A stretch of DNA of 64,000 nt from an uncultured Candidatus Saccharibacteria bacterium (GCA_964582465.1 CAZOQX010000003.1:1115-65114); one strand, 5' to 3'; positions 1 through 24,373 are shown, counted from the first letter of the stretch. Translations and numbers: made by a program. Notes: generated from the sequence alone by a model not told the origin.

Positions 1-1684
1 CTTGGATTTGCACCTCGTTAGTTGTAGCTCGATCGGTCAGCAATCGTTCCATAGTGCCGGACATATGGAAGACTTCAAAGATACCGAGACGACCCTTGTA
101 ACCATTGTTGCACTCCTTGCAGCCCTTCCCCCTGTACAAAGTATAAGCTTTTTGGCCAGCAACTGGCAAATTTTCATATCCCAGGTCTTGACGCAAAGAT
201 TCGACTTCGCTCGCGGACTTGGGTAAGAGTGAGCTAAGAGCGTTCATAATAGAGAGAGTCTGGGCCGGTGTACTGTCGTAACTCTCGGCACAGTGCTCAC
301 AAACTTTACGCACTAAACGTTGACCAATCACTGTATTAACCGTTGAGGCAATTAGGAAGGGTTCTACGCCCATATCGAGTAGTCGCGGCAAAACTCCGGA
401 AGCAGAGTTCGTGTGAAGCGTAGAGAGCACAACGTGACCTGTGAGAGCTGCCTGTACCGCCAAGTCAGCCGTTTCACCGTCGCGAATCTCCCCTACCATC
501 ACCACATTCGGGTCTTGGCGGAGAATTGATCGTAAGCCCGAGGCGAAAGTGAGTCCAACCTCCGGGCTAACCTGCATCTGGTTAATGCCGTCCATTTTGT
601 ACTCCACTGGGTCTTCCAGCGTCACAATATTAATCGTTGGACTCTTGATTTGGGCGATAACGGCGTAAAGCGTAGTTGACTTACCCGAACCGGTTGGGCC
701 AGTCGAAAGCGTCATACCATGAGGGCGGTGAATGCCGTCGGTGATGAGGCGAAGTGATCGACCCTTGAACCCCAGCGCATCGAGGGTCAAAATCGAACCA
801 TCCTTGTCCAGCAGTCTGATAACCACCTGCTCTCCAAATACAATAGGTGCGATGGAAACACGTACGTCAATCTCCCGCCCGGCGGCTTTGAACTGAAATT
901 GACCGTCCTGCGGAATACGGTGTTCGTCGATTTTCAGATTGGATAAAATTTTGATACGAGAAATCAACGCCGCCTCCACCTCCTTCGGTAGCGTCATGGT
1001 TTCTTGCAAAATACCATCGACGCGCAGGCGCACCTTAACTTCTTTCGCCCGCGGTTCAATATGGATATCAGAAGCCCTGGAGTTGGCGGCATACTCCAAA
1101 ATAGTATTCAAGGCGCGAGTAATCGGGGCGTCCTGCACCAGATTAGAAACATTGTCTTTATTCTTCTTGTCCTCCGAAGAATTTTTCGGAGAGTTATCCG
1201 CCATTTCATTGACGGAATCAATCACAGCTGATACTTCCTGCGACACATCAGCTTTGTACTGCCCCAAAACATGCTCAACGCTGGATTCTGATACCATGAA
1301 CGGGATTAGATTGCGCCCGATCTTGCGGCTTATAAAGTCAATGGCCTGCACATTCGTCGGATCAACTGTGCCAATAGCCAAACGCCCACGCATTTCACCA
1401 AAGGGCACCGTCATGTAGCTTTTGGCCAGATCGCGAGGCATGGCAGCCAGAATATTGTCAGCCACCGTCACATTGTGCAAATCAGCATATGGGATGCCGT
1501 TAGCCTGCGCCATCACTCGGGTTAAATCCTCCTCACCCACAACTTTTTGCTGGGTCAGAAGTGCTACCAGAGTAGTTTTTTGTTTCTTGGCATCGCTTCT
1601 AAGCGTACTCAACTTTTCCTGCGTTACTAGCCCCTGCTGAGCTAAAAGCTGCTCAAGTAGTTGTTGTGTTTCGAGGGCAAGCAT
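1..1684 (-). CDS. pilB: Type IV pilus assembly ATPase PilB/GspE family (C-terminus runs off window start)
   Basis: Minus-strand ORF starting at complement ATG 1682-1684. Translation carries Walker A GPTGSGKST and the C-terminal Zn-ribbon-like CKECNNGYKGRLGIFEV motif typical of PilB/GspE. No stop before window edge. Confidence 0.85.
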   Translation of the reverse strand, partial: MLALETQQLLEQLLAQQGLVTQEKLSTLRSDAKKQKTTLVALLTQQKVVGEEDLTRVMAQANGIPYADLHNVTVADNILAAMPRDLAKSYMTVPFGEMRGRLAIGTVDPTNVQAIDFISRKIGRNLIPFMVSESSVEHVLGQYKADVSQEVSAVIDSVNEMADNSPKNSSEDKKNKDNVSNLVQDAPITRALNTILEYAANSRASDIHIEPRAKEVKVRLRVDGILQETMTLPKEVEAALISRIKILSNLKIDEHRIPQDGQFQFKAAGREIDVRVSIAPIVFGEQVVIRLLDKDGSILTLDALGFKGRSLRLITDGIHRPHGMTLSTGPTGSGKSTTLYAVIAQIKSPTINIVTLEDPVEYKMDGINQMQVSPEVGLTFASGLRSILRQDPNVVMVGEIRDGETADLAVQAALTGHVVLSTLHTNSASGVLPRLLDMGVEPFLIASTVNTVIGQRLVRKVCEHCAESYDSTPAQTLSIMNALSSLLPKSASEVESLRQDLGYENLPVAGQKAYTLYRGKGCKECNNGYKGRLGIFEVFHMSGTMERLLTDRATTNEVQIQ

Positions 1685-1690
1685 ACGGCA

Positions 1691-2764
1691 CTACACAAGA
1701 GACCTTTCGGCCAAACCAATTGCGACCGGATATTCCAAGGCCATTTGGTTCAGCTGTTCCTGCATCACTGCGGGGAAGCTGACATGAGCCCAAGGATTCG
1801 CAATCGTGACAGGCAGGCCAGTTGCATTTGCTAGGTAGGTCGGTAAATCTGGTAGGGCCGCCGCACCTCCGGTCAAAATAATCTTTTCAATTTTGACAGT
1901 TTCATCTTTGGAAGCAAAAAACTTTTCCGATTTGTCCAGCTCACTGACCAATAGGTCGAGTGACGGCTTAATGGCCTTGTAAACTTGTCCTTCTAGCTTG
2001 TCTTGCATTAGACCGAACTTTTTTGTGAATTGCTCGGCTTGTTCGGCCGCCAAACCCAACGATTGGCTCACCGCCTTGATAAATGTCGACCCACCAACGT
2101 TAATCGAGCGCACCAGCTTTGGAGCCTGTTTGTGTACTACCGCGATATCGGTGTAAAGGCTTCCGACGTCTACGATCATCACGGCCGTATCTTCACGAGG
2201 CATCAAGCTACGAATCAGCGCGACGGCGTTCATCTCCAGCGCTTCAAGTTGTAACCCAGCCCGGTCAATGATATTCATGTATTTATTTACGCCGGTGTTG
2301 GGCGCAGACACCAAAAGAACTTCCATCTGATTGGGATCTTTCGCTGGCCCCACCACTTGCCAGTCCATTTTTACTTGATCAGCCGCAGTCGGAATGTATT
2401 GATCGGCCTGCAATTTAATGGCCTTGGCTAGCTCCTGATCATTCAGTTTGGGCGTCGTGATCACAGTAGCAAAAGCCAAAGCGGAAGGAATCCCTGCCAC
2501 CACGTTTTTAGTCGTGATTTTGGCGTCCTTCACTAGCTGTTTAATAACGTCCGCCACCTTCGATTGGTCCATCGGTGAGTCGCTAGTTGATAGTCCCGGT
2601 GGCAAATCAGCCGAGCCATAGGTCACAAGCGCCGGATTACCGCCACCAGCCCGAAGCTGCACCACCCTGACGCCAGTGGTTCCGATGTCTAGACCGAAAT
2701 AGCTATCTGAGCCTTGGAATAAGTTCATTAGCCAAATCATACCATAAGCAATATGGCTTGCCAA
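1691..2764 (-). CDS. pilM: Type IV pilus assembly protein PilM (actin-like ATPase)
   Basis: 357 aa ORF with N-terminal YFGLDIGTTGVRVVQL motif characteristic of PilM. Immediately upstream of pilB. Confidence 0.75.
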   Translation of the reverse strand: MASHIAYGMIWLMNLFQGSDSYFGLDIGTTGVRVVQLRAGGGNPALVTYGSADLPPGLSTSDSPMDQSKVADVIKQLVKDAKITTKNVVAGIPSALAFATVITTPKLNDQELAKAIKLQADQYIPTAADQVKMDWQVVGPAKDPNQMEVLLVSAPNTGVNKYMNIIDRAGLQLEALEMNAVALIRSLMPREDTAVMIVDVGSLYTDIAVVHKQAPKLVRSINVGGSTFIKAVSQSLGLAAEQAEQFTKKFGLMQDKLEGQVYKAIKPSLDLLVSELDKSEKFFASKDETVKIEKIILTGGAAALPDLPTYLANATGLPVTIANPWAHVSFPAVMQEQLNQMALEYPVAIGLAERSLV

Positions 2765-2771
2765 CTAGAAA

Positions 2772-3761
2772 CTAGCGTAGTTGCGGCAATAGTTTCAGGA
2801 TATGCGCTGTTTGGCTTTGTGCGGCGAGCCAGCGCGCAAGCGTGGGCGGCTTAAGTAAGATTATTCTGGCTAAAACAACGCCGTCGACTGTTTTTTCTCG
2901 CTTCAATATGTAGGTATTACCCTTAGCCGTGACCGCACCCGTAACTAACTGACCATCAGCCACGGCTGTGACTGCGTCGGCCACCGAAATCGGCAAGTTG
3001 CCGGCGCTAACCAACATGGCGTCTCCTGTTTTAGTCGCCGATACATCCTGCGAGTAGAGCTGCTGCAAATTAGTAAAATCCGCACCTTGTTTCAGCTTCT
3101 GGAGCAAACTCGCCGCCTGATCTTGGCTTTGCTTCACTAAAGTCGGATCTTGCTGCAGAGCCAGCGTCACCTTCTGATCTAAAAGCTGCTGCTTAGCACG
3201 GTAGCTAAACTCGAAACTATCTAGTCCGTATTGCTTCTTAATGTCACTAAGCGCCTTCTTTTTACCACCACCGTCCTTGTACAAACCATCCAGCGCTTTT
3301 GTACTCTCCTGATCAGTTAGCTCGATATGATGACTGCGCGCCCAGGCCGAGATTAAGGCCTGATTAGCGGACTCGGCCATAGCCTGTTCGTTTTGCTGTT
3401 TAGCGGTGAGCTTTTGGTTTACTTTATGTATTTCGAAATATTTTGCCTGGCTGCGCAGATTCAACAAGTAATCGTAGACGCTAACGGGGGTACGATTAAC
3501 ATACGCTGCCGGGATTGGTAATATGCGGGACATCCGATAAGCGAAGTCATTCTGCCAACCCAGTAAATATATGCCGACGGTTGCAGTCAGAATGGCAAAA
3601 CCTGCCGCCACCATTAGCGCTACAGCTGTTACAGCAGTCACTTTGCGCTGAGACTTGTTCGTATGAGCCAACACAAAGCGACTCACTACCTTCGCACTAT
3701 CCCCAATGAGCGACTTAAGCTGCTCACCTGCCTCTCGAAAAGTATCGCGAATCTCGCTCAT
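2772..3761 (-). CDS. Membrane-anchored parvulin-like peptidyl-prolyl isomerase (PrsA/SurA-like), possibly degenerate
   Basis: 329 aa with one N-terminal TM segment. C-terminal region GADFTNLQQLYSQDVSATKTGDAM...GNTYILK resembles the parvulin PPIase signature. Embedded in the pilus operon. Confidence 0.45.
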   Translation of the reverse strand: MSEIRDTFREAGEQLKSLIGDSAKVVSRFVLAHTNKSQRKVTAVTAVALMVAAGFAILTATVGIYLLGWQNDFAYRMSRILPIPAAYVNRTPVSVYDYLLNLRSQAKYFEIHKVNQKLTAKQQNEQAMAESANQALISAWARSHHIELTDQESTKALDGLYKDGGGKKKALSDIKKQYGLDSFEFSYRAKQQLLDQKVTLALQQDPTLVKQSQDQAASLLQKLKQGADFTNLQQLYSQDVSATKTGDAMLVSAGNLPISVADAVTAVADGQLVTGAVTAKGNTYILKREKTVDGVVLARIILLKPPTLARWLAAQSQTAHILKLLPQLR

Positions 3762-4963
3762 TGGTTCACCACCGAATTATTTAAAGCACAGCTATTATAG
3801 ATGCCAGCGCCGTTTTGATCCGTAGACTGCGGTCCCACCTTGCAAACCGGAGAGGTACTGCTCCCCGAGAACAGGGCGTAATCAAATATACCAATCAGCT
3901 GCCCCGTCAGGGTTTTGGTCGCCACCACGCGTCGGCGGATGTCGCCCGACTGCCCTACTACGTCGATCACCAACTGCGACCCCGGAATTTGTAAATCTGG
4001 ACCGTTCGCGTAAATGCCATCCGATAGCAGCTTCACTTGGTAATCAACTGAATAGGCTTTGCCATTTACGTCCTGATCAGCCGTACTCACTAACCGAACG
4101 CGGAAAATATATCCACGGCTACGATTATTGGGCGTACCGCTGCTCGCGATTTGATACAAAACACAGCTATAATTCGCCACCGTCGTAGTGTCGAGCACGA
4201 CGGTATTTCCAGTCTGCGGCAACGTCGAAGGGCTCGGCGTCGTAGAGGTAAACTGGGTTTTTTCCACCTTCACATCCTGAGAAGTACTGCCGTTGAAAGA
4301 CACCGCTGTTAACTCGAAGGCGGCACTGGGGTCAACTGCCAATATTTTATCAACACCATTGACGCCGCTCGAGGAAGTGCGCGCCCAGCAGAAACGGAAA
4401 GCTGAATAATCCTGAAAGAGTTTGTACGCGCTGTTACAATCTGGCGGGTTCTGGCCGATTGTACCTGTAGCCGCCACAGTGGCGCTGCACTTACGTGTCA
4501 AATAACTGGTATCAAATTGTAGGCTTTGATCCTTCAACACCGAGCCAGCAAAATTAGCATTGGTGCTCGGATAAACCTTACGTTGGCGCCACGATACCAG
4601 CCCGGGCGGATCAGTCGCCGGTGGCTCCTTGGTAATGGTGTAGTTCGGCCAGTTTGAGCTGGTAGTATCGGGCAGCACGGCGTAGTCCCCTACCAGCGTG
4701 CCATTATCGTATTGATTCGGGAAAAGCGTCTGGAGCTGACTCGTCGGGTTCGCCACACCGTCCAAAGTTTTAAGAGCATCCTCAATGCCCGCCTCGGCCG
4801 CATAAAAGGCATCCTCCGAGCGATCAACTTGACTCGATTGATTCAGCTCATTAATCGTCAGCTTCGCCGCATAGCTAGTCGTTACCACCAATAAGATGGC
4901 AATAATTGACACCAGGTAAATGGCGATGGCGCCGCGCTCGTTAGTTTTAACTACTTGCTTCAT
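3758..4963 (-). CDS. PilX-like pilus assembly protein / large minor pilin
   Basis: 401 aa with N-terminal hydrophobic segment followed by AFYAAEAGIE motif typical of the PilX N-terminal domain. Ser/Thr-rich remainder. Confidence 0.55.
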   Translation of the reverse strand: MKQVVKTNERGAIAIYLVSIIAILLVVTTSYAAKLTINELNQSSQVDRSEDAFYAAEAGIEDALKTLDGVANPTSQLQTLFPNQYDNGTLVGDYAVLPDTTSSNWPNYTITKEPPATDPPGLVSWRQRKVYPSTNANFAGSVLKDQSLQFDTSYLTRKCSATVAATGTIGQNPPDCNSAYKLFQDYSAFRFCWARTSSSGVNGVDKILAVDPSAAFELTAVSFNGSTSQDVKVEKTQFTSTTPSPSTLPQTGNTVVLDTTTVANYSCVLYQIASSGTPNNRSRGYIFRVRLVSTADQDVNGKAYSVDYQVKLLSDGIYANGPDLQIPGSQLVIDVVGQSGDIRRRVVATKTLTGQLIGIFDYALFSGSSTSPVCKVGPQSTDQNGAGIYNSCALNNSVVNQ

Positions 4964-5472
4964 TATTTGCCCCTCAAGGTTGCAACTGTCGACAAGCTAT
5001 AGGCGTAGGCGTAGGGATCACTTGAGCTAACGCTCCCAGGTTGCTTCAGCCAAACTGCCATATCAACCTGAAGCGCCTCTTTGTCACCCGCTGGGGCTAG
5101 GTTTTGATAGCGCACCGCCTGAATAAATACTCCGTCGGTCACTGACACACCGTTTCTGAGGATGGCATTATTTGCAAAAGTATAATTCACGTCCGTCGCG
5201 GCTTGACCATTCAAGTTTTGGTTGTATTGCAAGGTTAGCGCAGTGGGACTGTTCACGGCGGCAGCCTTGGCGTTTCTAATGTCTCGCGCAATGCCCTCTA
5301 GTACATAGCGGCCGTTTTGCTGTACCGCTCGCTGCGTGGCACCCTTTTGCTGCAGCTTAGAGATCGAGGTGAAGGTCAGGCTGGCCGTAATCATAGCGGA
5401 TGATAAAAGTGCCATGCCAATCACCACTTCAACCAGAGTAATGCCATCTTCGCGCCTCACGACTGCGTCCAA
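4963..5472 (-). CDS. Minor pilin with prepilin-type N-terminal cleavage/methylation domain
   Basis: 169 aa. N-terminus ...DGITLVEVVIGMALLS matches the class III signal peptide (G/FTLxE) consensus. Confidence 0.6.
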   Translation of the reverse strand: MDAVVRREDGITLVEVVIGMALLSSAMITASLTFTSISKLQQKGATQRAVQQNGRYVLEGIARDIRNAKAAAVNSPTALTLQYNQNLNGQAATDVNYTFANNAILRNGVSVTDGVFIQAVRYQNLAPAGDKEALQVDMAVWLKQPGSVSSSDPYAYAYSLSTVATLRGK

Positions 5473-6011
5473 TCGGTTAAAACGGTCCGCTCAATTACCT
5501 GCCTGGTACCGTTACTCTCCGTCCAGTTCACCTGCACCTGCACGTTTTTAGTATGAGAATCACCGTTGGCATCGCAGATTGTGAGCATACGGGAATAACT
5601 TGAATAAATCTGGCCAAAGTTGACACTATTACCATTAATGTCCAAGCTAGTGCCATCGAGTGCACCGGAACTGTAGGCGGTCGGACTAGCCACGGTCGCC
5701 TTACTCCAGCCACCTGGTCCGGCCACGCTCGGACGCATTATCCACTGGTGAGCTTGATCATTGGCGCAGCCGGTGATGCCATCCAAAAATGTGGCTGTAT
5801 CGCGTAGCTCACTATCACGGTAGGCTCGAAGCGCTTCCATCTCTCGATCAGCCAGTGCCACGGCCTGACTGCGCCGCCCCGCTTCTCCACTGGTTTTGGA
5901 TGATACACTCGCAAGCGCCGCGGCTGATGTGATCGACATCGCCATTAACGCCAGCGCTACCACTAGCTCGACCAAGGTTTGTCCAGATTGATTAGTCTTC
6001 AATGCCGCCAC
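5457..6011 (-). CDS. Minor pilin with prepilin-type N-terminal domain
   Basis: 184 aa. N-terminus ...SGQTLVELVVALALMA is a class III signal peptide. Confidence 0.6.
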   Translation of the reverse strand: MAALKTNQSGQTLVELVVALALMAMSITSAAALASVSSKTSGEAGRRSQAVALADREMEALRAYRDSELRDTATFLDGITGCANDQAHQWIMRPSVAGPGGWSKATVASPTAYSSGALDGTSLDINGNSVNFGQIYSSYSRMLTICDANGDSHTKNVQVQVNWTESNGTRQVIERTVLTDWTQS

Positions 6012-6017
6012 GAATTA

Positions 6018-6671
6018 TTACTTTACTGATACGTCAATCTTACCATTAGCGGGATAAAAAATCACTGTGCCGGTAAGTGCGACGTAATCAGCCGTTAGTG
6101 TAAATGTGACGTTTTGAGCGCCCGTATAGGGTTTGCCGGTAGAGGTTGTGACGGCCGCACACGGCGTACCGGAATCATCACAGCTAGTAAAACTCTTGCC
6201 GTCCGGGGCCAGAAATGCCAGCGATATGCTACTTGGCGCCGAGTTGCCGGCATTGTTTACGGCGATAGCCGAGATCTTGAGCCCCTCGGCGGTCAAGCTG
6301 GTCGAAGCGGCGAAAACTGGATCACTAATACCCGTCTGCTGAGTGTTATCGGTAGCAACCGACGTGTTTGTAAAATCACTGCCGTTTAATAGCATCGAAT
6401 CATACTTGTTCCCGGCCGAATTGTTATAAAAATTTAGGGCCGTCCCCCGCCAATAGCAGGGCGAGGTGGCACAGGTGCCAACTTGGCCAGTGTACGAATG
6501 CACCTGGGCCTGGCGAATGTCGTTCGCGAAGGCCTTGACCTCATCACTAAAACGCTCAGTTTTGATACTTGTCCCAGCTCCCCGGATTAAAACTAACGTC
6601 AACAATCCTATGATAGCCAGAGCCACCGTAGTTTCGATCAAAGTGTAGCCTTGTTTCCTAGGTAGTATCAT
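6018..6671 (-). CDS. Pseudopilin/minor pilin (prepilin-type N-terminal domain)
   Basis: 217 aa. N-terminus ...QGYTLIETTVALAIIGLL is a class III signal peptide. Confidence 0.6.
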   Translation of the reverse strand: MILPRKQGYTLIETTVALAIIGLLTLVLIRGAGTSIKTERFSDEVKAFANDIRQAQVHSYTGQVGTCATSPCYWRGTALNFYNNSAGNKYDSMLLNGSDFTNTSVATDNTQQTGISDPVFAASTSLTAEGLKISAIAVNNAGNSAPSSISLAFLAPDGKSFTSCDDSGTPCAAVTTSTGKPYTGAQNVTFTLTADYVALTGTVIFYPANGKIDVSVK

Positions 6672-6748
6672 TCTTAAAGTCCTTGAGCTTATACTACCAA
6701 ATAAATCCAGGAATACTAAATCCGGTTTTACCTAGGAGTAGAGGAACG

Positions 6749-7180
6749 CTATCTCACCGGGAATAAACCGGCGCCTTCGGTACAAACCGAAAGTTCGAAG
6801 TCACGATTATTGGCAGATTGAGCATAGAGTACTTCATATCTACTGGCATCAGTCGTAGCCGCACAGGCACCCGTCAAGTTTCCTGACGCAACATAAGTAC
6901 CAGCGGTAAAAGTATACTTGCCACCCAGCTTTGCGTCTAAGGTCGTCACGGCCGTTTTAGCAGCCGCATTGCTCGCAGGATAACTCGCGCCGTTATTAGC
7001 CGCATACTGATCAAGCAAGCCACCCATGCGGCCAGCCTCAGTCTTACGCGTAGTGTCACGTTGGGACTTCTGGGCACTGGCAATGGCGTTAAAGACCACC
7101 AGTATGATCAGGGCAGCGATGGCTAGCACGATCACTACTTCGATTAATGTAAACCCTTTAGATTTTTTCAATTCTCTCAC
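6749..7180 (-). CDS. pilA: Type IV major pilin (PilA-like), paralog 1
   Basis: 143 aa. Short leader MRELKKSKG followed by FTLIEVVIVLAIAALI, the canonical type IVa prepilin N-terminus. Small size is typical of a major pilin. Confidence 0.75.
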   Translation of the reverse strand: MRELKKSKGFTLIEVVIVLAIAALIILVVFNAIASAQKSQRDTTRKTEAGRMGGLLDQYAANNGASYPASNAAAKTAVTTLDAKLGGKYTFTAGTYVASGNLTGACAATTDASRYEVLYAQSANNRDFELSVCTEGAGLFPVR

Positions 7181-7271
7181 CCACTTGATGCTTATGTTTA
7201 CCTATTTATACCACTTCTCCCGTCAAAAACAAAACCGGGAGCACGGCCCGGCTTAGTTTTTGACTTTCGGA

Positions 7272-7712
7272 TTATTTAACTTGGACTAGTCCGCCACCTT
7301 CTGTACAAACACTCAACTCGTAGTCGCGGTTCGTTGCTCCATTTGTGACATATAACACCTCATATATCGCAGCCGTTGTTGGGCTAGTAGCACAGGCACC
7401 GGTTAAGGCCCCATTGGCGACGTAGGTGCCTGCTGTAAAGGTGTACTTAGCACCTAGTTTAGAGTCAAGACCGGTTACAGCCGTCTTGGCTAAGGCAGTG
7501 GTAGATGGATATACACCAGAAGCATTAGACGCGGATTGTTCTAGTAGACTCACAATGCGGCCAGCCTCAGTCTTACGCGTAGTGTCACGTTGGGACTTCT
7601 GGGCACTGGCAATGGCGTTAAAGACCACTAGCAGGATCAGGGCAGCGATGGCTAACACGATCACTACTTCGATTAATGTAAACCCTTTAGCCTTATTTAG
7701 TTTCCGTAACAT
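7272..7712 (-). CDS. pilA: Type IV major pilin (PilA-like), paralog 2
   Basis: The track ORF extends to 7784. The internal start MLRKLNKAKG-FTLIEV at 7712 gives a canonical short prepilin leader. Mature N-terminal ~45 aa are nearly identical to paralog 1 at both protein and DNA level. Confidence 0.7.
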   Translation of the reverse strand: MLRKLNKAKGFTLIEVVIVLAIAALILLVVFNAIASAQKSQRDTTRKTEAGRIVSLLEQSASNASGVYPSTTALAKTAVTGLDSKLGAKYTFTAGTYVANGALTGACATSPTTAAIYEVLYVTNGATNRDYELSVCTEGGGLVQVK

Positions 7713-7790
7713 AATATTTGTGCTCACCTTTCTATTACTTATAGTGCTTACGTTTAATTTAAAGTCTTTCAGCTCAGTTGTCAACCTCCC

Positions 7791-9017
7791 CTACCTAGTT
7801 GGCCCACTGCTGACGCCCGACACTAAGCCGTAAATCGGCAGAAGCACGGCGCCGATCAGGAAGGCCACCATCACGCCCAAAACTACCATGGTAGCAGGCT
7901 CAATCAGGGTGGAGATATTTTTGACGGCCTGATCGACCTCATCTTCATAATAAGAAGCTACCTTCTCCAGACTATCGCCGAGCGTACCTGTTTGTTCACC
8001 GACCGCGAGCATTTGGCCAACCAGCGGCAAAAACATCGGGTGGTCCGTAATTAATTCCGATAGCGATGTGCCGCTTTTGACACGATTAGTGATATCTAAA
8101 ATAGCCCGCTCGAAATTAACATTATTGATGGATTGGGCCACAATAGTGAGCGCCTGCAAAATAGGCACGCCAGTTGAGATCAGTGAACCCAGCGTCCGCG
8201 CGAACCGCGCCATGTAAACTTTTTCCATCAATTGACCAAATAACGGCACCTTCGTCTTCAAGCTATCCAGCTGGCTGCGGCCAGGCGCAGATTTAATATA
8301 CATCCGTAGGCCATAGCCTGCCCCGATCAGCACTAACACGGTAATGTACCAATAGTGGGTGGTGAAATTGGAGAGAGCGAGCATTATTCGCGTAAAAACT
8401 GGCAAGGGCTTTTTGAGATCTTCATACATCTTGCCCACCTGCGGTAAGACCAAAGTTAGCATCAAGGTTGACACACCCAAAAGCACAGCCAGCACCACAG
8501 CAGGATAGGTTAAAGCGCCTCTGATTTTTGACCTAATCGCCTGGTTTTTCTCCTCCTGGTCGGCCAGCTTGAGCAAAACTTCGTCCAGATTACCGCTCAC
8601 CTCCCCCGCCTCGACCATGCTGATATAAATCGTGCTAAATATGTCGGCATGCTGAGCAAGCGACTGCGATAAACTCACGCCCCCCTCTAGACTGCTCGAC
8701 AGGCTTCGAATTATCTCCTTAAGCTTCGGGTTGGTCATCTGTTGCTCTAGCATACGCAGAGCTTTGGCAATTGGCAGGCCGGCCTTTACCATGGTGGCCA
8801 GCTGGCGGGTAAAGATGACCTTCTCTTTCGTGCTAACACGGTGCAAGATTTTATCGAGGAAAGAAGAATCTAGGCCCGGTTTTTTGGTGCCAATTTCCAG
8901 AGGAAACAACTGTTTTGCAACCAAGAGTTTGGTGGCTTCTTTTTCGCTCGCCGCCTCAACTTCGGCTTTGACCAGTTGCCCGGTCGCGTCTTTAGCTACG
9001 TAGTAATACTGCTGCAT
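7791..9017 (-). CDS. pilC: Type IV pilus inner-membrane platform protein PilC (GspF family)
   Basis: 408 aa polytopic membrane protein with two GspF-like repeats. Sits between the pilins and pilO/N. Confidence 0.85.
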   Translation of the reverse strand: MQQYYYVAKDATGQLVKAEVEAASEKEATKLLVAKQLFPLEIGTKKPGLDSSFLDKILHRVSTKEKVIFTRQLATMVKAGLPIAKALRMLEQQMTNPKLKEIIRSLSSSLEGGVSLSQSLAQHADIFSTIYISMVEAGEVSGNLDEVLLKLADQEEKNQAIRSKIRGALTYPAVVLAVLLGVSTLMLTLVLPQVGKMYEDLKKPLPVFTRIMLALSNFTTHYWYITVLVLIGAGYGLRMYIKSAPGRSQLDSLKTKVPLFGQLMEKVYMARFARTLGSLISTGVPILQALTIVAQSINNVNFERAILDITNRVKSGTSLSELITDHPMFLPLVGQMLAVGEQTGTLGDSLEKVASYYEDEVDQAVKNISTLIEPATMVVLGVMVAFLIGAVLLPIYGLVSGVSSGPTR

Positions 9018-9026
9018 CGAAGTCTC

Positions 9027-9305
9027 CTACTGAAAGGGATCACTCTTACCTAGATCGCCTGATTTCGGCGAAACATCGGGGTAATCCGTGTCCTTTGACT
9101 GGAGTTGCTGAAGAGCATTTTGATCAAAAGAGGTGTTGATCCTAGCGGGGCCGGCAGCCGGCAAGTTGCCAGATTTTTGGGACTTTTTGTGGTGCGGGAA
9201 AAGCATCCAGCCTAGCACACCGACGATTAAGACTAAAATAACGATTTCTTTTACGAGCTTGCTTTGAGCCCGATTCTGAGGCATGGCAACTTTGGGCATT
9301 TTCAT
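9027..9305 (-). CDS. Small membrane-anchored protein in the PilP position (hypothetical)
   Basis: 92 aa with a single TM helix and a Pro/Gly/Ser-rich tail. Transcribed after pilN-pilO, where pilP sits in canonical pilMNOP operons. No sequence motif recognised. Confidence 0.4.
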   Translation of the reverse strand: MKMPKVAMPQNRAQSKLVKEIVILVLIVGVLGWMLFPHHKKSQKSGNLPAAGPARINTSFDQNALQQLQSKDTDYPDVSPKSGDLGKSDPFQ

Positions 9306-9877
9306 TGCGTCCCTCCTGTAGTGCTAGCGGGCGGCGCCGCCTGATAGTAGGCTGTAATGTTTACGGCTGCCTGCACATTAGTACTCCCGGCACCATTAGG
9401 TGCCAAGTTGACGGATTGAACGTCAATATAGCGAGCAGCGTTTTCGAGTTTTTGCAATAAGCTTTGGACGCCGGCGTAAGATGCACTGATGGCTAGATTT
9501 ACGGGATAAGTAGCGACCCCTGTTGCTGCGCTGGCGGCGACACCACCCGGCGAAAACGTAGTCATTACCGCACTGCTTTTGGACGTCAAATCACTTACCA
9601 TCGCCACCAGCCTCTCCTCTTCGTTAGCTGTAGGTAGTAGGTGCAGAATTTGATCATGCTGATCTTTGACGGCGGCGTAATTTTGGCGCAGGGTCTGAGT
9701 ATCTTGATCCAGCTGCTTTAAGGCAGTGATTTTATTGTTGTAATCTGCGATCTGCTGCCCATCCTTCCCGGCTGTGTTTAAAATTGGCTTAATGATAAAG
9801 AAGCCAACTACGGCCGCAGTTGCAAGCCCAATCAATAAATACAGCCCGACTAGGTTCAGTAATTTGTGATCTTTCAT
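9302..9877 (-). CDS. pilO: PilO-like pilus assembly protein
   Basis: 191 aa. N-terminal TM segment, then a coiled-coil segment and a C-terminal domain. Follows pilN with a 4-nt overlap. Confidence 0.55.
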   Translation of the reverse strand: MKDHKLLNLVGLYLLIGLATAAVVGFFIIKPILNTAGKDGQQIADYNNKITALKQLDQDTQTLRQNYAAVKDQHDQILHLLPTANEEERLVAMVSDLTSKSSAVMTTFSPGGVAASAATGVATYPVNLAISASYAGVQSLLQKLENAARYIDVQSVNLAPNGAGSTNVQAAVNITAYYQAAPPASTTGGTQ

Positions 9878-10476
9878 TTCGCCAAACCTCCGGTGGGATA
9901 AACATAGGTTGCGGAGAGCGAAAATGCCACGCGGGTTCCTTGGACGCTGGCTCCACTAAATGCTACGGAGTTAAAGTAGATTTGTCCTCCCGCATTCGCC
10001 ACACTGGTCGTACTTGGGTCGGGTGTTGGACTAGACTGCTTAAGCGCCGCGATGGCTGTGCCCACTTCATTGTAGGAACCAGCCGTGCCGGCAATGACAA
10101 CTTTCTCGCCATCGACATTAAGCGATTGCAGTGTGACCCCCTTCGGCAAAAGATCAGTCACCCGCTTAAAGATGGCCGAAAACTTATGTTGATTGCTAAA
10201 CAGCCCGTTCAATTCTTGTAGGCTAGCCTGGACAGCCAGGGCTTCTTTACGAAATGCGACGTTATCCGGTGAATTCACCTGAGCGTTGAGGGTGGTATAG
10301 CTATTTTTGGCCGAAGTCAGCCGCACTTTCTGGACGCCCAAGTACACGCCAGCAAGAACTGCCAAGCCCGCCACTAAAATTAGCCAGCCAACAATACTTG
10401 CCGTGGCTATCTTCTTAAACTTCTCCTCACGCTGACGGTTAAGGACTAAATCTGGTAGTAGGTTTACCTTGATCAT
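9874..10476 (-). CDS. pilN: PilN-like pilus assembly protein
   Basis: 200 aa. MIKVNLLP N-terminus followed by a TM helix is the hallmark PilN start. Confidence 0.65.
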   Translation of the reverse strand: MIKVNLLPDLVLNRQREEKFKKIATASIVGWLILVAGLAVLAGVYLGVQKVRLTSAKNSYTTLNAQVNSPDNVAFRKEALAVQASLQELNGLFSNQHKFSAIFKRVTDLLPKGVTLQSLNVDGEKVVIAGTAGSYNEVGTAIAALKQSSPTPDPSTTSVANAGGQIYFNSVAFSGASVQGTRVAFSLSATYVYPTGGLAK

Positions 10477-10520: not shown

Positions 10521-13500
10521 TTAATTACTTGGTACCGCCTCATTCCACACCGCCGGAGCACTATTAAGAGTACTGAACCATGGCGGCGGGTTGCTCACCA
10601 CCGTGCCATCGTAGACGAAGTTCTCGGATGGGTTGATGTCAGGATCTAGTTGTGTGCCAGGCTGGCGCTGTAAGTTGAATGATGAGGCAATTATCAAACC
10701 GTTGAGTGTCAGCGGTTGGTCGACATTGACGCGATCATTGTTCCCCACTAAGCTGGTGCCCGAGCTAAATGCACCATTCGCAAAGTAGTTGCCGGCTAGA
10801 TTACTCACGCAATCGTCGGAATTGAAACACTTAACGATGATATTGCCGGTCACAATGAATCCAACTGACGTCTGCTGGCTGCGATCAGTACCGCTATAGC
10901 CGTTATAAGAGACATCACCGTTTACAATTAGATCGCCATTTACAACTATTGTGCCCGCTCCGCCTGCAAAACTGAGCGCGGTATGGGTAGCAGGATCGCC
11001 TAAGTTCAAATTACCATTAGCATAATAGGTTCTCCCGTTGGCGAGCGTAAAGGTGTCGTCCATCGTATAGTAATTTTGCCCGCTGACCTTAGTGAGGTTC
11101 GTGGCCTTCCCCACAATATTATTATTGTAATTGGTCTGCCCCCAGATGGCGTAAATCGGATTATTAGCATTGTCATACGTTCCCGAATTGCCGGTGTTGA
11201 GAGCGTAGGGGCTGAAGGCTTTTCCTTGACTAGGATGACCCGATACGCCTGGGCTGGTGAAGTCAAAGTGATTAATTAGTCCTTTGGTGTACAAGAACGC
11301 CGATTGCGCCAGGGAGTGCGCGAAGTAGCTATCGATCTTCCCGCCAGCGTAAACGTCGGAATTTTGGAAAGATATGGTCGGATTATAAATGGTAGCAACC
11401 CCGCGGTCGGGCTTGGCAGCACTATCCGATTCTATACCGTAAAGCACATTATCGGGCTTGGAGGCGCTCACGTCGCGCGATCCGAGGTCTCGGGTGTGTC
11501 CCTTAAAGGTACTCTCGTAGCGAGCGCGCTGGACGTTACTTGACCAACCCCAGTCGACATTGACTAAACCGTCCTTGGTGCCATCGTATGTTACGTCGCA
11601 TTCCCCATCGAAGTTAGCGGGACAATTGGCCGTATCTTCCTGAAGTAATTGGCCAGCGCCGGTGTAGTACTTGGTGTTGGCGGCACTCGCGGTCAGGTTA
11701 AAGAAACCGCCGGGCCAATAGGTTGCCGTCACATTTTGAGTGCCAGACTTGGTGTCATCAAAGCCCGTGATTACCGGCTCCACCACCTGCGTGTCATAAA
11801 TCATGCGATTCGTATAAAGCGGATCGGCGCGATCAAATGCCCAGCTTACTCCAGCGCCGTGAGCAAGCGGTGTCGAATCCCCCGAGTTATCCATCGTAGT
11901 AACGGTGGTCGAGTCCTGCCAATAAGTGGGGAGGTCGGCCGTTGCTGGGTCATTATCACCATCGGCCCAAGTCGGGTTGGTCTTGTTAAATCCCCCACCA
12001 AAGTAACTATCTTGGCCTAACACTTGACCTTGAATCGTGGCATTGGGATTCAGCCACCCCCACTTGGTCTCTCTTCTGCCCAAGTAGTAGGTAAAGTTGC
12101 TGACGATAAATTTATTGCTAATCTTTAGCGTCACGGTGGTACCAGCAGTCCCGTCGGCAGTTCCAGGGCTATAGGTGAAGCCGGCCGCGCCGCTGGCATT
12201 GGTTGCACCCCCCAACTTCACGCCGATCGGCGTGTCGTGAGCAGCAGCGTTTTTGGTTGGATACCAGTGGCCCTTGTCGTCTAGTTGCGACCAATTCACG
12301 TACTCATCCCACTTAAGCTGCGCATTATCGACGTGTGTAATGCCCGTAGTGTAGGTCAACGGTTCTTGGTTATTGGCCTTATATTTGAGTGTGCCGTTGT
12401 CCTGACTGTCCTGCAAAAGCGACGTCACAGTCGTAGTGCCCCACGATTTCAGTGGCAAATCACTTACACCCAAGCCGCCCTTCAAAATATTGTCTGGATC
12501 AAGCGTAAAGTTAGTCGGTACATCAGTATTGTCCGAATCAGCCTGATTGGTGAAGTTAGCATCGTTAATTGAGGCACTATACGTACTCGGGAAAAGTTGT
12601 GGATTTCGAACGTTATCCCAAGTGTTGGGCTTTGGCGAGTTATCGGCCTTAACTGGTCCAGCACTATTATCGGGCAATGACTGCCGCGGATCCGCTCCCT
12701 TATTGGTATCGCGCTGCAATAGATTTTTGTCGATGCCGCCCTGCCACTGAACGCCGTGGTCGCCCACCACTGAGACATCATCTGAGTTGTTAGCCGGCGA
12801 TTTAATTCCTTGGGCGTTAATATGGAGGTTAGAGATCTCGACAGCGTTGATGTGATTACTGCCGCCGCAGTCCCATACTTGTTTGCCGTCAGTATAAAAG
12901 TAGCTGCCGTCTTGGCAGGCGATGCCGCCGTGGCGGGGGTCAAAAGCATTGCTATCGCTGGTCGAGAAGTTCACGTCGCGAATGGGTTGCCACTTATTGC
13001 CACCAGGAGTGGACGAGCCGGACGTCACGGTGCCGTCGTTCTTCGGTACGTAAGCGAGCGGGATGCGCTGCAAGCAACCGGTGGCCGCAAACGAAGCCGG
13101 GCAACCAATCTCCGCCTTGTTATTAAAGACACTCATGCTGTTTAGGTCCGTATCGAGATTTTCGCTGGTGGTATTGGTATCCCCAAAAGCCGATCCCCAA
13201 GTACCAGCCAGCCAGAAGTTAGTCGAATGATCGTTGCCTTGGTATGTTCCTTGATCGGTTTTGCCGCGATTGCCCGCATCCGGCCACATGTAGGCCTGCA
13301 GGTTAAAGAGCGGATATTTAAAGTTATCGCGCACGAACTGTAAAACGGGGTGAATGAAGTTGGCTAAGTAGACTTTCGCTGGCGTGTTTAGAGATTTAAT
13401 GGTGATAGCGCAGGTGTCGCCGAATAGGTCATATACACCGGCCACGAGACTAGGCGTACCCATCTGGAAGGTTAGGCGATAGACGCCGGGGGTCGCTGGT

Positions 13501-14993
13501 GTTACATAGCTCGCATTCGAGAAAGTAGTAGTCTGATTGGGGCCGATAGGTGGACTATTAATCGACTGAGTCGTAGGTCCAGTTACAGGAGTGTCATCAG
13601 TACGAACTAGCTTATACGAGCTGGTCCAAGCCACATCGCCGGTATTCTTTAATGACTGGGTAATTTTTACAGTCGACCCCGGCGCGACAGGGTTCGGAAT
13701 AGAGCTTTGGATGCTTTGGCAGTTTGAGTTCTGGGAGCAAGTATCGTTGTAGGTTTCACTATCGTACGGGATCCAAATTTGCGGATCGTTATTGTAGCTA
13801 ATGTTGTGCCATACCCACATAAACTGCATACTATACGCCGCGGCAAAGTCTAGAGTTTTAGTTTCACCGTTGCCGCCAATAAATTCAGGGTATTTATCCG
13901 GATTCTGATCGGCAACTGCCGTCTTTACATCATAGCCCCGCCGATGAGCACTTCCCCCATTGAAAATATCTGGAGTTATCTTCCACGGCCCGGGACTAGT
14001 CCCGCCAACGTCGCGATAATATAAATCAAAGTAGATTTGTGGGTTAACCGGAGAAGAGTCGCTAGCCCCGTCCGCATCCTGCCACCTCAGCTCGTTATAA
14101 AGAATAGGATAAACCTCTTTTTGCGACAAGCAGGGGGTTGCAAACGGAATATAGAGGTCGTAGGTTCCACTCGTGTTGGTCGTATCAAGCGTGATAGGCT
14201 GATCACCTTTATCAAACCTCGCCCACAAGCCCACACGGTTCCCACCACAAGGGAAATTTTGATTTGCCCCCTGATTATTTACATCTTGTTGCATGCAACC
14301 ATCAGCTTGTGTCCCGGAGCTATAAGCTTGGATCCTGAAGTTCGCCCACCGGTCGTGACCAGGCTCAACGACCACACTGTCATCTGTGTTCATCGCCGAA
14401 ATATACCCAACTGCAAGTCGGTATACATAGTATCCGTTGCTCTTATTACTAGGCGATGATAAACATCCGCCATCGCCGTAGTTGTCAGAGTCGGTATCAA
14501 ACTTAATAGGGTCGCTCCACTGACCCGGGCTTGTAAAGAATACGGACCCTTGCTTGCCCTGAGAGATACATTTTTTGGCGTTATTATTATCGTCGAAGAT
14601 TTTGTAGGATTCGTCAGCGTTGGCGGGGGTAAAGAAAAATTTCATGCTTTTGAAATCTTGGTCAGAAGAACTTCCAGTACCTGTCCGAATTCTTATGTAG
14701 GTATTGTGGGGATCTTTGAAGTATAGCTTGATGTAAGATACGGGCGTATCGATAGCTCGACCTGTAGTGCCAGCATTGCATTGGTGGTTTGGATTGGTAA
14801 AGTAGCCTGAACATGCTTGGCTAACATCGACTTGAATATCGCCGTTCCCTCCATCGACTGTTTGATTCGGTAGAACATCATTTACTCTTACAAAGCTAAA
14901 GTCCGGGGCAGCCTGGGCTGGCTTAACCAAACTGAACAGGTTAACCGGCAGAAGCACCGCCAAAATAGTTAGCCACCTAATAAGCTTAGCCAT
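10521..14993 (-). CDS. Giant secreted surface protein (1490 aa), function unknown; candidate adhesin with beta-helix-like C-terminal region
   Basis: Uninterrupted 4.47 kb ORF with N-terminal signal peptide (LLPVNLFSLVKPAQA). Very Gly/Thr/Asn/Ser/Asp-rich. C-terminal NGDLIVNGDVSYNG...VGFIVTGNIIV repeats suggest a beta-helix. Heads the T4P locus. Confidence 0.7.
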   Translation of the reverse strand: MAKLIRWLTILAVLLPVNLFSLVKPAQAAPDFSFVRVNDVLPNQTVDGGNGDIQVDVSQACSGYFTNPNHQCNAGTTGRAIDTPVSYIKLYFKDPHNTYIRIRTGTGSSSDQDFKSMKFFFTPANADESYKIFDDNNNAKKCISQGKQGSVFFTSPGQWSDPIKFDTDSDNYGDGGCLSSPSNKSNGYYVYRLAVGYISAMNTDDSVVVEPGHDRWANFRIQAYSSGTQADGCMQQDVNNQGANQNFPCGGNRVGLWARFDKGDQPITLDTTNTSGTYDLYIPFATPCLSQKEVYPILYNELRWQDADGASDSSPVNPQIYFDLYYRDVGGTSPGPWKITPDIFNGGSAHRRGYDVKTAVADQNPDKYPEFIGGNGETKTLDFAAAYSMQFMWVWHNISYNNDPQIWIPYDSETYNDTCSQNSNCQSIQSSIPNPVAPGSTVKITQSLKNTGDVAWTSSYKLVRTDDTPVTGPTTQSINSPPIGPNQTTTFSNASYVTPATPGVYRLTFQMGTPSLVAGVYDLFGDTCAITIKSLNTPAKVYLANFIHPVLQFVRDNFKYPLFNLQAYMWPDAGNRGKTDQGTYQGNDHSTNFWLAGTWGSAFGDTNTTSENLDTDLNSMSVFNNKAEIGCPASFAATGCLQRIPLAYVPKNDGTVTSGSSTPGGNKWQPIRDVNFSTSDSNAFDPRHGGIACQDGSYFYTDGKQVWDCGGSNHINAVEISNLHINAQGIKSPANNSDDVSVVGDHGVQWQGGIDKNLLQRDTNKGADPRQSLPDNSAGPVKADNSPKPNTWDNVRNPQLFPSTYSASINDANFTNQADSDNTDVPTNFTLDPDNILKGGLGVSDLPLKSWGTTTVTSLLQDSQDNGTLKYKANNQEPLTYTTGITHVDNAQLKWDEYVNWSQLDDKGHWYPTKNAAAHDTPIGVKLGGATNASGAAGFTYSPGTADGTAGTTVTLKISNKFIVSNFTYYLGRRETKWGWLNPNATIQGQVLGQDSYFGGGFNKTNPTWADGDNDPATADLPTYWQDSTTVTTMDNSGDSTPLAHGAGVSWAFDRADPLYTNRMIYDTQVVEPVITGFDDTKSGTQNVTATYWPGGFFNLTASAANTKYYTGAGQLLQEDTANCPANFDGECDVTYDGTKDGLVNVDWGWSSNVQRARYESTFKGHTRDLGSRDVSASKPDNVLYGIESDSAAKPDRGVATIYNPTISFQNSDVYAGGKIDSYFAHSLAQSAFLYTKGLINHFDFTSPGVSGHPSQGKAFSPYALNTGNSGTYDNANNPIYAIWGQTNYNNNIVGKATNLTKVSGQNYYTMDDTFTLANGRTYYANGNLNLGDPATHTALSFAGGAGTIVVNGDLIVNGDVSYNGYSGTDRSQQTSVGFIVTGNIIVKCFNSDDCVSNLAGNYFANGAFSSGTSLVGNNDRVNVDQPLTLNGLIIASSFNLQRQPGTQLDPDINPSENFVYDGTVVSNPPPWFSTLNSAPAVWNEAVPSN

Positions 14994-15074
14994 TAGAGTT
15001 ATTGTATGAGCTTATCCACTACCAGTCAAACCCCTTAAGCTTATTGACATCATGACTGCTCCGGTAGACTATTA

Positions 15075-15707
15075 ATGTTAATGGCTAAGCGCAAAAGGAA
15101 AATGACCAGACTACTCCCATCGCTCGGCAAGCTCTCTAACCTTTCTTTCGTAGCGATCGTATGTGGCGTGGTGACTTTTGGAATACTTGCCTACTACGTG
15201 GTACACGCGCTCTCTTATCACAGAATCGGCATACTACAAGAACACGGCCAAACTTTTTACTACACCAACCCCACAACCGGCCACGTAACTGCTGAAAAAG
15301 TTATTCATCCTGATCAAGGTGATGGCGGTAAACTGTCATGTAGCAATACTTGCTGGCTCTCGGCTAAAGCAAGTTCAACCTTCCAAGACGCCTGGACTGG
15401 TCCAGGGTTTCACGTAGCGTCCAGCGGCGTAAACTCAACTAACAAGAATCAACGCGCGTGCTTTGTTATTCGGGTTGCTCCAGGTGCATCCTCAGCAATA
15501 GCAGGAATATCCGTCGATGGGACACCAGTAGGACAATCTACATCTGTTACAAAAGATTTCAAGTGTTATTGGCTGAACTACACAGTCAAAGCAGGCCAGA
15601 CCGGCCTCAGCTGGACCATCCATGTTCAGTCTGGGCAAGTTCAGATTGACCGTGTAGAACTGTGGCAGGGCGGTGCTAGTGGCAAGAGTGTTTTTGTAGA
15701 ACTGTAG
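15075..15707 (+). CDS. Secreted/membrane-anchored Cys-containing protein, tandem paralog A
   Basis: 210 aa with N-terminal hydrophobic anchor. C-terminal ~125 aa are identical to paralog B. Conserved CSNTCW, CF and C motifs. Confidence 0.6.
   Translation: MLMAKRKRKMTRLLPSLGKLSNLSFVAIVCGVVTFGILAYYVVHALSYHRIGILQEHGQTFYYTNPTTGHVTAEKVIHPDQGDGGKLSCSNTCWLSAKASSTFQDAWTGPGFHVASSGVNSTNKNQRACFVIRVAPGASSAIAGISVDGTPVGQSTSVTKDFKCYWLNYTVKAGQTGLSWTIHVQSGQVQIDRVELWQGGASGKSVFVEL
15334..15705 (+). repeat. Direct repeat copy 1 (372 bp, 100% identical to 15958-16329)
   Basis: Read directly: tgtcatgtagcaatacttgctgg...gtgtttttgtagaa occurs twice with a 624-bp period. Confidence 0.9.
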
Positions 15708-15755: not shown

Positions 15756-16334
15756 ATGTTGAAGTTTCGTTTTTCTATACTAACAGTCTACCTGGCCAGC
15801 ATAATTGCTGGCTTCTTAGCTTGGAGCTTCCCTGCCCAGGCTATTACGTATCACAAAGTCTCCACTCTCCAGGAACACTCAACTTTCTCTTATACAAATG
15901 ATGGGAAAACGATTAAAGAGAAGGTTCAGCATCCTGACTGGAGGGACGGCGGGCACATGTCATGTAGCAATACTTGCTGGCTCTCGGCTAAAGCAAGTTC
16001 AACCTTCCAAGACGCCTGGACTGGTCCAGGGTTTCACGTAGCGTCCAGCGGCGTAAACTCAACTAACAAGAATCAACGCGCGTGCTTTGTTATTCGGGTT
16101 GCTCCAGGTGCATCCTCAGCAATAGCAGGAATATCCGTCGATGGGACACCAGTAGGACAATCTACATCTGTTACAAAAGATTTCAAGTGTTATTGGCTGA
16201 ACTACACAGTCAAAGCAGGCCAGACCGGCCTCAGCTGGACCATCCATGTTCAGTCTGGGCAAGTTCAGATTGACCGTGTAGAACTGTGGCAGGGCGGTGC
16301 TAGTGGCAAGAGTGTTTTTGTAGAATTACAGTAA
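15756..16334 (+). CDS. Secreted Cys-containing protein, tandem paralog B
   Basis: 192 aa with signal peptide ending AQA. C-terminal half is identical to paralog A. Confidence 0.65.
   Translation: MLKFRFSILTVYLASIIAGFLAWSFPAQAITYHKVSTLQEHSTFSYTNDGKTIKEKVQHPDWRDGGHMSCSNTCWLSAKASSTFQDAWTGPGFHVASSGVNSTNKNQRACFVIRVAPGASSAIAGISVDGTPVGQSTSVTKDFKCYWLNYTVKAGQTGLSWTIHVQSGQVQIDRVELWQGGASGKSVFVELQ
15958..16329 (+). repeat. Direct repeat copy 2 (372 bp)
   Basis: Identical to 15334-15705. Encodes the shared C-terminal half of the two paralogs. Confidence 0.9.
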
Positions 16335-19471: not shown

Positions 19472-19564
19472 TCGACGGCTCCTCTCGGTGGGATTGTCAA
19501 TACTTAACCATGATGTGTGCGTGCTGTCAATGACAGTAGCTCCGGCTCTGTTAAAATTACTGCT

Positions 19565-24371: not shown

Positions 24372-24373
24372 TA

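Follow-up and report, generated by a model that had tools for sequence, protein, structure and literature searches.

The analyzed DNA stretch (the window) comprises 64,000 nucleotides from an uncultured Candidatus Saccharibacteria bacterium (GCA_964582465.1 CAZOQX010000003.1:1115-65114); all coordinates are counted from its first letter. At the head of its type IV pilus (T4P) operon stands a gene encoding a protein of 1490 amino acids (the giant protein). The protein is extracytoplasmic and not a pilin. Its conserved C-terminal module recurs as the constant element of a large family of proteins, whose N-terminal remainder varies from ~200 to more than 3000 amino acids; genes encoding the module are strongly tied to T4P machinery genes across many lineages. 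With moderate confidence, we consider the giant protein to be a Sec-exported, non-pilin accessory protein of the T4P of a Saccharibacteria-type (Patescibacteria) bacterium, with the module docking to the pilus or its machine and the N-terminal part binding targets; its location at the pilus tip and its role in adhesion we infer by analogy.

The Gene and Its Product

The coding sequence spans positions 10521..14993 of the minus strand, from ATG to stop (1490 amino acids plus the stop codon). A preceding model-made description of the same DNA (the sequence-only reading), which left the strand unstated, had called it the largest open reading frame (ORF) in the window, as it indeed is, the runner-up having 904 amino acids. 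An identical copy of the protein occurs once, without a name, in the public collection (P0001, NCBI). The mature protein has a mass of 158 kDa and an isoelectric point of 4.66. Gly (9.3%), Thr (9.1%), Asn (9.1%), Ser (8.4%), and Asp (8.3%) make up 44.2% of the protein, and Glu only 1.3%; against the mean of 28.5 ± 5.0% for these five residues in the 37 long ORFs of the window, this is the maximum (z = 3.2), hence the composition had rightly been described as extreme. Second to it in these residues come two ORFs of the same operon, those of a minor pilin and of the PilX-like protein.

The N-terminus, MAKLIRWLTILAVLLPVNLFSLVKPAQA followed by AP, features a basic n-region, a hydrophobic core, and an A-x-A site, and we read it, by rule of thumb and with no predictor, as the Sec signal peptide claimed by the sequence-only reading. 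All homologues inspected begin with signal-like segments. The 19-residue hydropathy profile has a sole peak above ~1.6, at residues 1–10; the next peak is just 1.44, at residue 1339 within the solenoid described below, in agreement with the claimed lack of a transmembrane anchor after the signal. The suggested search for sortase or other anchoring motifs in the protein gave no match to LPXTG/NPXTG/LAXTG, PEP, or GG[AS]xx[FWY], and the C-terminus (...AVWNEAVPSN) contains no hydrophobic segment; on both counts, a sortase-anchored (LPXTG) adhesin is rejected. A repeat-type adhesin is rejected as well, since self-BLAST of the protein reveals no internal repeats, and no tandem repeats are found in the gene.

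Domain Architecture

The alignment of 18 family members, combined with segment-wise searches, reveals three layers in the giant protein: a poorly conserved N-terminal part, a core, and the C-terminal module. The features are as follows.

14910..14993, minus strand: Sec-type signal peptide, amino acids 1–28 (rule-based reading, cleavage proposed after AQA)
13689..14909, minus strand: variable N-terminal region, amino acids 29–435, with 7 Cys (23–28% identity over parts)
13413..13688, minus strand: NBR1-type immunoglobulin (Ig)-like domain, amino acids 436–527 (PF16158, E = 4.5e-7)
11424..13388, minus strand: conserved core, amino acids 536–1190, ~650 residues (alignments; Saccharibacterial homologues only)
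10530..11384, minus strand: conserved C-terminal module, amino acids 1204–1488, ~290 residues (hhalign, HMMER, phmmer)
10557..11099, minus strand: predicted beta-solenoid, amino acids ~1299–1479, ~180 residues (confidently modelled by AlphaFold2)

Over amino acids 29–535, similarity at the 23–28% level is seen in parts only and in 5/17 relatives, while 0/88 loci matched. The Ig-like domain (30.8 bits at a cutoff of 28) is the sole Pfam domain of the giant protein; it is likewise present in homologue P0003. The variable parts of relatives show sub-threshold matches to the glycoside hydrolase family 2 (GH2) sugar-binding domain and to F5/8 type C. The sequence-only reading had advised a search for pectate-lyase, PbH1, and LamG domains; none of these was found in the giant protein.

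The core is marked by the motifs VRDNxxF, YxWPDAG, WDEYVDWxQVDDKGHWY, and GWxWxSNxQRVRYE, and among the loci it occurs in L001 and L003 only. The module ends with ExFxYDG(R)xxxNPPPGF...AVWNExVP. Its family is defined by the signature ...GAGTIxVxGDL...SVGxIV...YDGRxxxNPPPG..., a signal or anchor at the N-terminus, and location of the gene directly 5' of pilM or pilN, all of which are found in the giant. The hhalign comparison of the giant family (A1) with the short family (A6) yields a 99.9% probability (E = 4.8e-37) over amino acids ~1204–1488. Neither the core nor the module has a Pfam or NCBIfam model, and NCBIfam gives no match for the giant protein, its short relatives, or the neighboring unknowns. 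The module is present once in the window, with no second copy.

Fold of the C-Terminal Module

AlphaFold2 was run on amino acids 536–1490 with 19 sequences (run 1) and on amino acids 1190–1490 with 116 sequences (run 2). Run 1 produced an all-beta model with a mean predicted local distance difference test (pLDDT) score of 60.5, reaching 74–87 in the C-terminal part; in run 2, the score is 77–95 at amino acids ~1299–1479, with the short stacked strands typical of solenoids. The two models concur on a solenoid at amino acids ~1275–1479 (pLDDT 74–95), and fold searches return solenoids only. The sequence-only reading had anticipated a beta-helix-like C-terminus and proposed structure prediction and fold search as a check; both models and the fold matches thus support it, and the strings on which it was based, NGDLIVNGDVSYNG and VGFIVTGNIIV, are located at amino acids ~1350–1387.

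Foldseek search of the PDB with the model of amino acids 536–1490 places ComZ of Thermus thermophilus at the top (E = 8.7e-3, probability 0.98), followed by bactofilin, antigen 43, ice-binding proteins, and tapirin. For the solenoid, the top structural matches are DUF3494-type ice-binding proteins, with 15–19% sequence identity in the structural alignments. The 955-residue model was matched solely through its C-terminal solenoid, hence the core has no recognizable fold at this model quality. Sequence searches of the PDB, with the single sequence and with the profile, gave nothing meaningful, the profile touching only the phage gp5 needle repeats (E > 0.3). By the models, the solenoid is predicted to be of the ice-binding-protein/ComZ kind and not of the pectate-lyase kind.

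Given these matches, the module might be a true ice-binding or antifreeze domain. This is very unlikely: the giant protein has no Pfam match to the ice-binding DUF3494 family at E ≤ 1, the similarity being limited to the fold, at the low sequence identity given above; ComZ shows the same resemblance without having that function; and linkage to pilus genes has no connection to ice. The alternative raised by the sequence-only reading was an enzyme acting on host surface polymers; this would be a free secreted or wall-bound polysaccharide lyase or hydrolase of the beta-helix type that only happens to share a transcript with the pilus genes. Carbohydrate-active enzymes are common among right-handed beta-helices, and lyases and tailspikes do occur in the fold-match lists. 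However, the giant protein matches neither pectate lyase, nor Beta_helix/PbH1, NosD, or glycoside hydrolase families of Pfam at E ≤ 1; the solenoid, with its ~180 residues, is short; and the synteny with pilus genes over distant lineages, considered below, speaks against a chance neighbor. We therefore regard an enzymatic role as improbable, and the protein is not classified as a pectate-lyase/PbH1 enzyme, a class defined by the Pfam Beta_helix, Pectate_lyase, and NosD repeats and a catalytic groove.

Linkage to Pilus Machinery Genes

The giant gene is the first in the minus-strand operon giant–pilN–pilO–orf92–pilC–five pilins–PilX-like–PpiC–pilM–pilB. The next gene downstream on the same strand is, as had been stated from the sequence, pilN, which lies at a distance of 44 nucleotides.

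9874..10476, minus strand: pilN (PF05137, E = 2.8e-8)

Word-index homology searches, both with the whole protein and with the 18-sequence alignment, returned the giant protein itself only, low-complexity words being the probable cause. Exhaustive HMMER search with amino acids 291–1490 yielded ~16 full-length relatives of 1219–1756 amino acids (35–41% identity), one of them annotated as [quoted passage not shown], and more than 100 shorter proteins, which match over the C-terminal 170–290 amino acids only and always at their own C-terminus. The scan of GTDB genomes with the single giant protein gave no matches. When an alignment of five sequences served as the query against GTDB species genomes, three loci were found, all in metagenome-assembled genomes (MAGs) of Saccharibacteria/Saccharimonadia. 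In all three, the homologue is followed on the same strand by PilN, PilO, PilC and, several genes later, by PilM and PilB; hence, the gene order is maintained at ~30% protein identity.

Six short proteins that carry the module, with no pilus gene among them, were aligned and used to scan metagenome contigs; the ORFs of the 80 loci returned were then searched with PilM, PilN, PilO, PilB, and PilC of the window and of one locus. Among the 71 loci with at least 700 nucleotides downstream, 65 (92%) have a same-strand PilM ORF at a median of 77 nucleotides after the module match. PilM is followed, where the contig continues, by PilN, PilO, PilB, often a second ATPase, and PilC. Each locus contains one module gene, encoding from ~470 to more than 3300 amino acids. 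Amino acids 1191–1490 of the giant protein match ORFs in 64 loci directly by phmmer (E down to 2e-27). With the order in 3/3 MAGs and the adjacency to pilM in 65/71 metagenome loci, the pilus-operon link drawn by the sequence-only reading is stronger than the sequence alone could show. Upstream of the module gene, the neighbors vary: one group of loci has recJ together with an RNase H gene at this place, a second group has other large secreted proteins. Hence, the conserved partner is the downstream machinery block.

In the latter group (L025 1950–7895, L027 3596–7975, L030 5489–7990, L035, L039, L048, and L069), the large secreted proteins preceding the module gene have 376–1057 amino acids and form a further unnamed family associated with these pilus operons, most of them carrying W-x-E-P-x3-P-P-x-G-N-V-x-A-P-L-N just past the N-terminal helix; this motif is absent from the window. 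The module genes of L076, L077, L079, and L080, directly 5' of pilM, encode proteins of ≥2724 to ≥3372 amino acids, and several of them run off the locus.

The tight coupling of the module gene to machinery genes, together with the combination of a variable N-terminal "passenger" and a constant C-terminal domain, could also be explained if the giant protein were cargo of a type II-secretion-like exporter, with the C-terminal module as the recognition domain of the substrate. Still, known type II substrates generally lack a conserved terminal module, and in a single-membrane bacterium Sec alone suffices for release. Moreover, the five pilins and the PilX-like protein of the window operon typify a true pilus, and T4P filaments are documented in Saccharibacteria (PMC11623550, PMC11880426). 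Accordingly, we hold the cargo explanation to be unlikely, at about the level of an enzymatic role.

Proposed Function and Alternatives

The favored reading, a pilus accessory protein, could work as follows. The C-terminal module would attach the protein to the pilus, most likely by capping the minor-pilin priming complex as a tip "plug", a role that has been proposed for the solenoids of ComZ and cyanobacterial PilX and that corresponds to the C-terminal domain of PilY1. The N-terminal region would be exposed at the tip and bind a target (host or surface). Sec would export the protein; at the platform of PilN, PilO, and PilC it would then be loaded on the priming complex and driven outward as PilB polymerizes pilin beneath it. 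The extracellular character of the protein is supported by the signal peptides, the lack of further membrane segments, and the pilin-like composition. Possible binding domains in the variable parts are the NBR1 Ig-like domain and the sub-threshold GH2 sugar-binding and F5/8 type C matches of relatives. Generally, tip adhesins combine a constant dock with a hypervariable passenger. "Plug plus adhesin" at the tip is favored because the giant family has this same design, and because the pilus-linked proteins of the same fold, ComZ and cyanobacterial PilX, are tip elements. Of the adhesin or pilus-tip role suggested by the sequence-only reading, the pilus link and the beta-helix hold, and both tip location and adhesion are plausible; the solenoid, however, being the conserved part, is unlikely to set host specificity. 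Binding specificity, if any, more likely resides in the variable N-terminal region.

Several observations weigh against this reading. The giant gene heads the machinery genes instead of lying among the minor pilin genes, the usual site of PilY1 genes, and the operon already encodes the PilX-like candidate tip protein (3758–4963). The T4P-1 locus of the oral Saccharibacterium Southlakia epibionticum, as given for that locus in the supplementary tables, starts with pilM and has no large gene there, hence a giant-type protein is not universally required in the phylum. Several metagenome loci have the module gene after recJ and the RNase H gene, with no pilin nearby, and the distant module relatives P0161, P0163, and P0164 do not adjoin pilus genes. 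The taxonomy of the 80 metagenome loci is unassigned, and the core model is of low confidence (mean pLDDT 60.5), with no fold match. Finally, it is by comparison that we infer the tip placement of the giant protein.

Published work on Saccharibacterial T4P covers pilins, PilX1/PilX2, and the machinery (PMC11623550, PMC10633639); text searches of the main papers and the Southlakia supplementary tables gave no mention of such a protein, a solenoid, or an ice-binding-like protein, although the supplements are possibly incomplete. At the matching locus, the oral species treated in these papers do not have the gene.

The position of the gene directly before pilM/N/O or pilN/O, and not among the pilins, is better accounted for by the main rival explanation, which we consider more likely than the cargo and enzyme roles, if still rather unlikely in itself. 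Here, the giant protein would be a fixed envelope component that stays at the surface, binds the PilN/PilO ectodomains through the module, and forms or lines the passage of the pilus through the wall or outer layer in the absence of a secretin (in the manner of PilP/PilQ/TsaP), its beta-rich body spanning the envelope. Consistent with this are the near-universal presence of the module gene at the head of these machinery operons; the lack of a secretin among the identified genes of the window operon, to which alone the secretin models were applied; the restriction of the Pfam matches of the giant protein to PF16158; and the good conservation of the core (amino acids 536–1190) within Saccharibacteria. 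On the other hand, a structural part that forms a passage would be expected to have a fairly constant size, whereas the region before the module is poorly conserved and varies from ~200 to more than 3000 amino acids; the pilus-linked fold relatives (ComZ, cyanobacterial PilX, tapirins) belong to the tip or the surface and not to a conduit; and oral Saccharibacteria are reported to make pili from T4P-1, even though in Southlakia this locus has no such head gene.

If the accessory-protein reading is extended beyond Saccharibacteria, the module might be an unrecognized, near-universal, Sec-exported non-pilin tip "plug" of the pili of Patescibacteria or candidate phyla radiation (CPR) type, replacing PilY1, with a passenger of 200 to more than 3000 amino acids setting the target or host, and with the 1490-residue form as an expanded lineage-specific version; we put this forward as a tentative and rather doubtful generalization. 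Environmental Saccharibacteria show, in cryo-tomograms, densities where their surface filaments or "lances" end (PMC11880426); that the giant protein accounts for these is pure speculation. In any case, the C-terminal ~290 amino acids offer a simple sequence handle, or marker, for such proteins in metagenomes.

All cultivated Patescibacteria, to our knowledge, live attached to host cells. Southlakia cannot do without its T4P, and TM7x uses them to bind its host (PMC10633639, PMC11623550). With its gene at the head of the pilus operon in many uncultured lineages, a conserved dock joined to highly variable extracellular parts readily suggests itself as a candidate for the part that bears specificity, and as a testable one for host recognition by episymbiotic bacteria. 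Were the protein an envelope component, it would instead hint at how pili cross the envelope in bacteria that have no secretin.

The Pilus Operon and Its Surroundings

The further features of the operon, and a site upstream of it, are as follows.

9302..9877, minus strand: pilO (PF04350, E = 3.2e-11)
9027..9305, minus strand: small membrane protein orf92, 92 amino acids, between pilO and pilC (no family match)
7791..9017, minus strand: pilC, platform protein (PF00482, E = 5.4e-64)
4963..7784, minus strand: five prepilin-type genes (7272–7784, 6749–7180, 6018–6671, 5457–6011, 4963–5472; PF07963)
3758..4963, minus strand: PilX-like protein, 401 amino acids, with an N-terminal hydrophobic helix, candidate tip pilin (sequence, position)
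2772..3761, minus strand: SurA/PpiC-type peptidyl-prolyl isomerase (family match; also present in L001)
1691..2764, minus strand: pilM (PF11104, E = 8.4e-54)
2..1684, minus strand: pilB, assembly ATPase, running off the window start (translation and phmmer matches to the PilB ORFs of the loci)
15001..15029, minus strand: promoter-like site TTGACT-17-TACAAT (consensus match only, 10/12)

For the pilin gene at 4963–5472, the PF07963 match is below the curated cutoff (19.4 vs. 21.2 bits). The PilX-like protein has no family match; it is so called from its place at the end of the pilin cluster and from comparison with the described PilX1 and SEML1_0116 (PMC11623550, PMC10633639 supplement), orthology to PilX1 being a candidate assignment only. 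ORFs for single-helix membrane proteins of 75–92 amino acids follow pilO in the window, in the distant metagenome operon L004 (7137–7382), and in Southlakia (SEML1_0107), and ORFs of 90–93 amino acids are also found 3' of pilO in L002 and L003; this small protein may be a conserved, unnamed part of the pilus machine.

The promoter-like site is seen only 5' of the giant gene; the promoter scan overall showed no enrichment over shuffled sequences. The TACAAT hexamer ends 7 nucleotides 5' of the giant ATG (14994–15029), with no Shine–Dalgarno sequence in between, hence the giant mRNA is possibly leaderless, and the first gene of the operon may be translated from such an mRNA.

The next gene upstream is divergent. 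It belongs to a pair of tandem paralogues on the plus strand, 15075–15707 and 15756–16334, encoding 210 and 192 amino acids, each with a hydrophobic N-terminal segment and with identical C-terminal ~125 residues; in the DNA, the pair is seen as a 300-nucleotide direct repeat (95% identity, 624 nucleotides apart). Neither protein has a Pfam match, and the first has no NCBIfam match as well. The pair seems to have arisen recently, by duplication or gene conversion of a gene for a secreted protein adjoining the pilus operon.

Also upstream of the giant gene, at a distance of a few kb, are tlyA and ychF (19517–21347). The T4P-1 locus of Southlakia is also flanked by tlyA and ychF (SEML1_0102-0104), but there ychF abuts pilM, whereas in the window ychF is separated from pilN by ~4.5 kb (lysA, a putative wall-binding protein, and the paralogue pair) and the giant gene, and pilM is at the far end of the operon; the pilus locus has been rearranged within the phylum. 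Further upstream, ~9 kb from the pilus operon, are recX and recA (23766–25402, minus strand). In TM7x, a recA/recX pair lies inside the second pilus locus (PMC11623550).

Comparison With Known Systems

The only Pfam model touched by relatives of the module is DUF7305 (PF23981), with 9/92 of them matching at E ≤ 0.01 (best 3e-4), and with P0162 and P0164 reaching 31 and 27 bits, respectively. The giant protein does not belong to this family, having no match at E ≤ 1 (the gathering score is 27 bits). Unlike the giant gene, those of the DUF7305-positive relatives whose loci were examined (P0163, P0164) do not adjoin pilus genes. DUF7305 has no known function, and we found no mention of it in the papers searched. 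A secretin (PilQ/GspD) is rejected as well: there is no Pfam match to secretin or N0/STN domains, and the secretin complex appears in Foldseek only as a meaningless match (E = 9.8).

Tapirins of Caldicellulosiruptor (PDB 6N2B, 6N2C, 4WA0) are looser analogues, with a weaker structural match than ComZ or the ice-binding proteins and with no sequence similarity; the tapirin helix itself binds the substrate, whereas the helix of the giant protein is the conserved part.

ComZ (PDB 6QVI) and cyanobacterial PilX share with the giant protein an ice-binding-like beta-solenoid. For ComZ, an ice-binding protein was described as the closest relative of the solenoid, and a position at the pilus tip was argued for (PMC6561018). 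[quoted passage not shown] In these proteins, however, the solenoid is inserted in a pilin fold with a prepilin leader and an N-terminal helix, while in the giant protein it is C-terminal and is preceded by a Sec-type signal. No similarity to ComZ is seen at the sequence level (PDB sequence and profile searches). A true pilin of the ComZ/PilX type is rejected: the N-terminus, with its AQA-AP junction, is of the Sec type; there is no G-F/M-T-L-x-E; and PF07963 matches the pilins of the operon but not the giant protein.

With the tip-associated PilY1/PilC proteins of Gram-negative type IVa pili, the giant protein shares the design: a large Sec-exported non-pilin encoded in a pilus cluster, variable toward the N-terminus and conserved in its C-terminal domain. 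This we treat as a probable analogy of design and not as family membership. What is conserved in PilY1 is a beta-propeller (PF05567); the conserved domain of the giant protein is modelled as a solenoid, with no PF05567 match at E ≤ 1 and no homology to PilY1 detected, hence PilY1 membership is rejected. Further, PilY1 genes are found among minor pilin genes, whereas the giant-type gene heads pilN/O or pilM/N/O. The giant protein would thus represent a third design of the pilus tip, beside the PilY1 propeller and the inserted solenoid of ComZ/PilX, with the same kind of solenoid carried by a non-pilin: it most resembles PilY1 in its design, and ComZ/PilX in the fold of its conserved domain.

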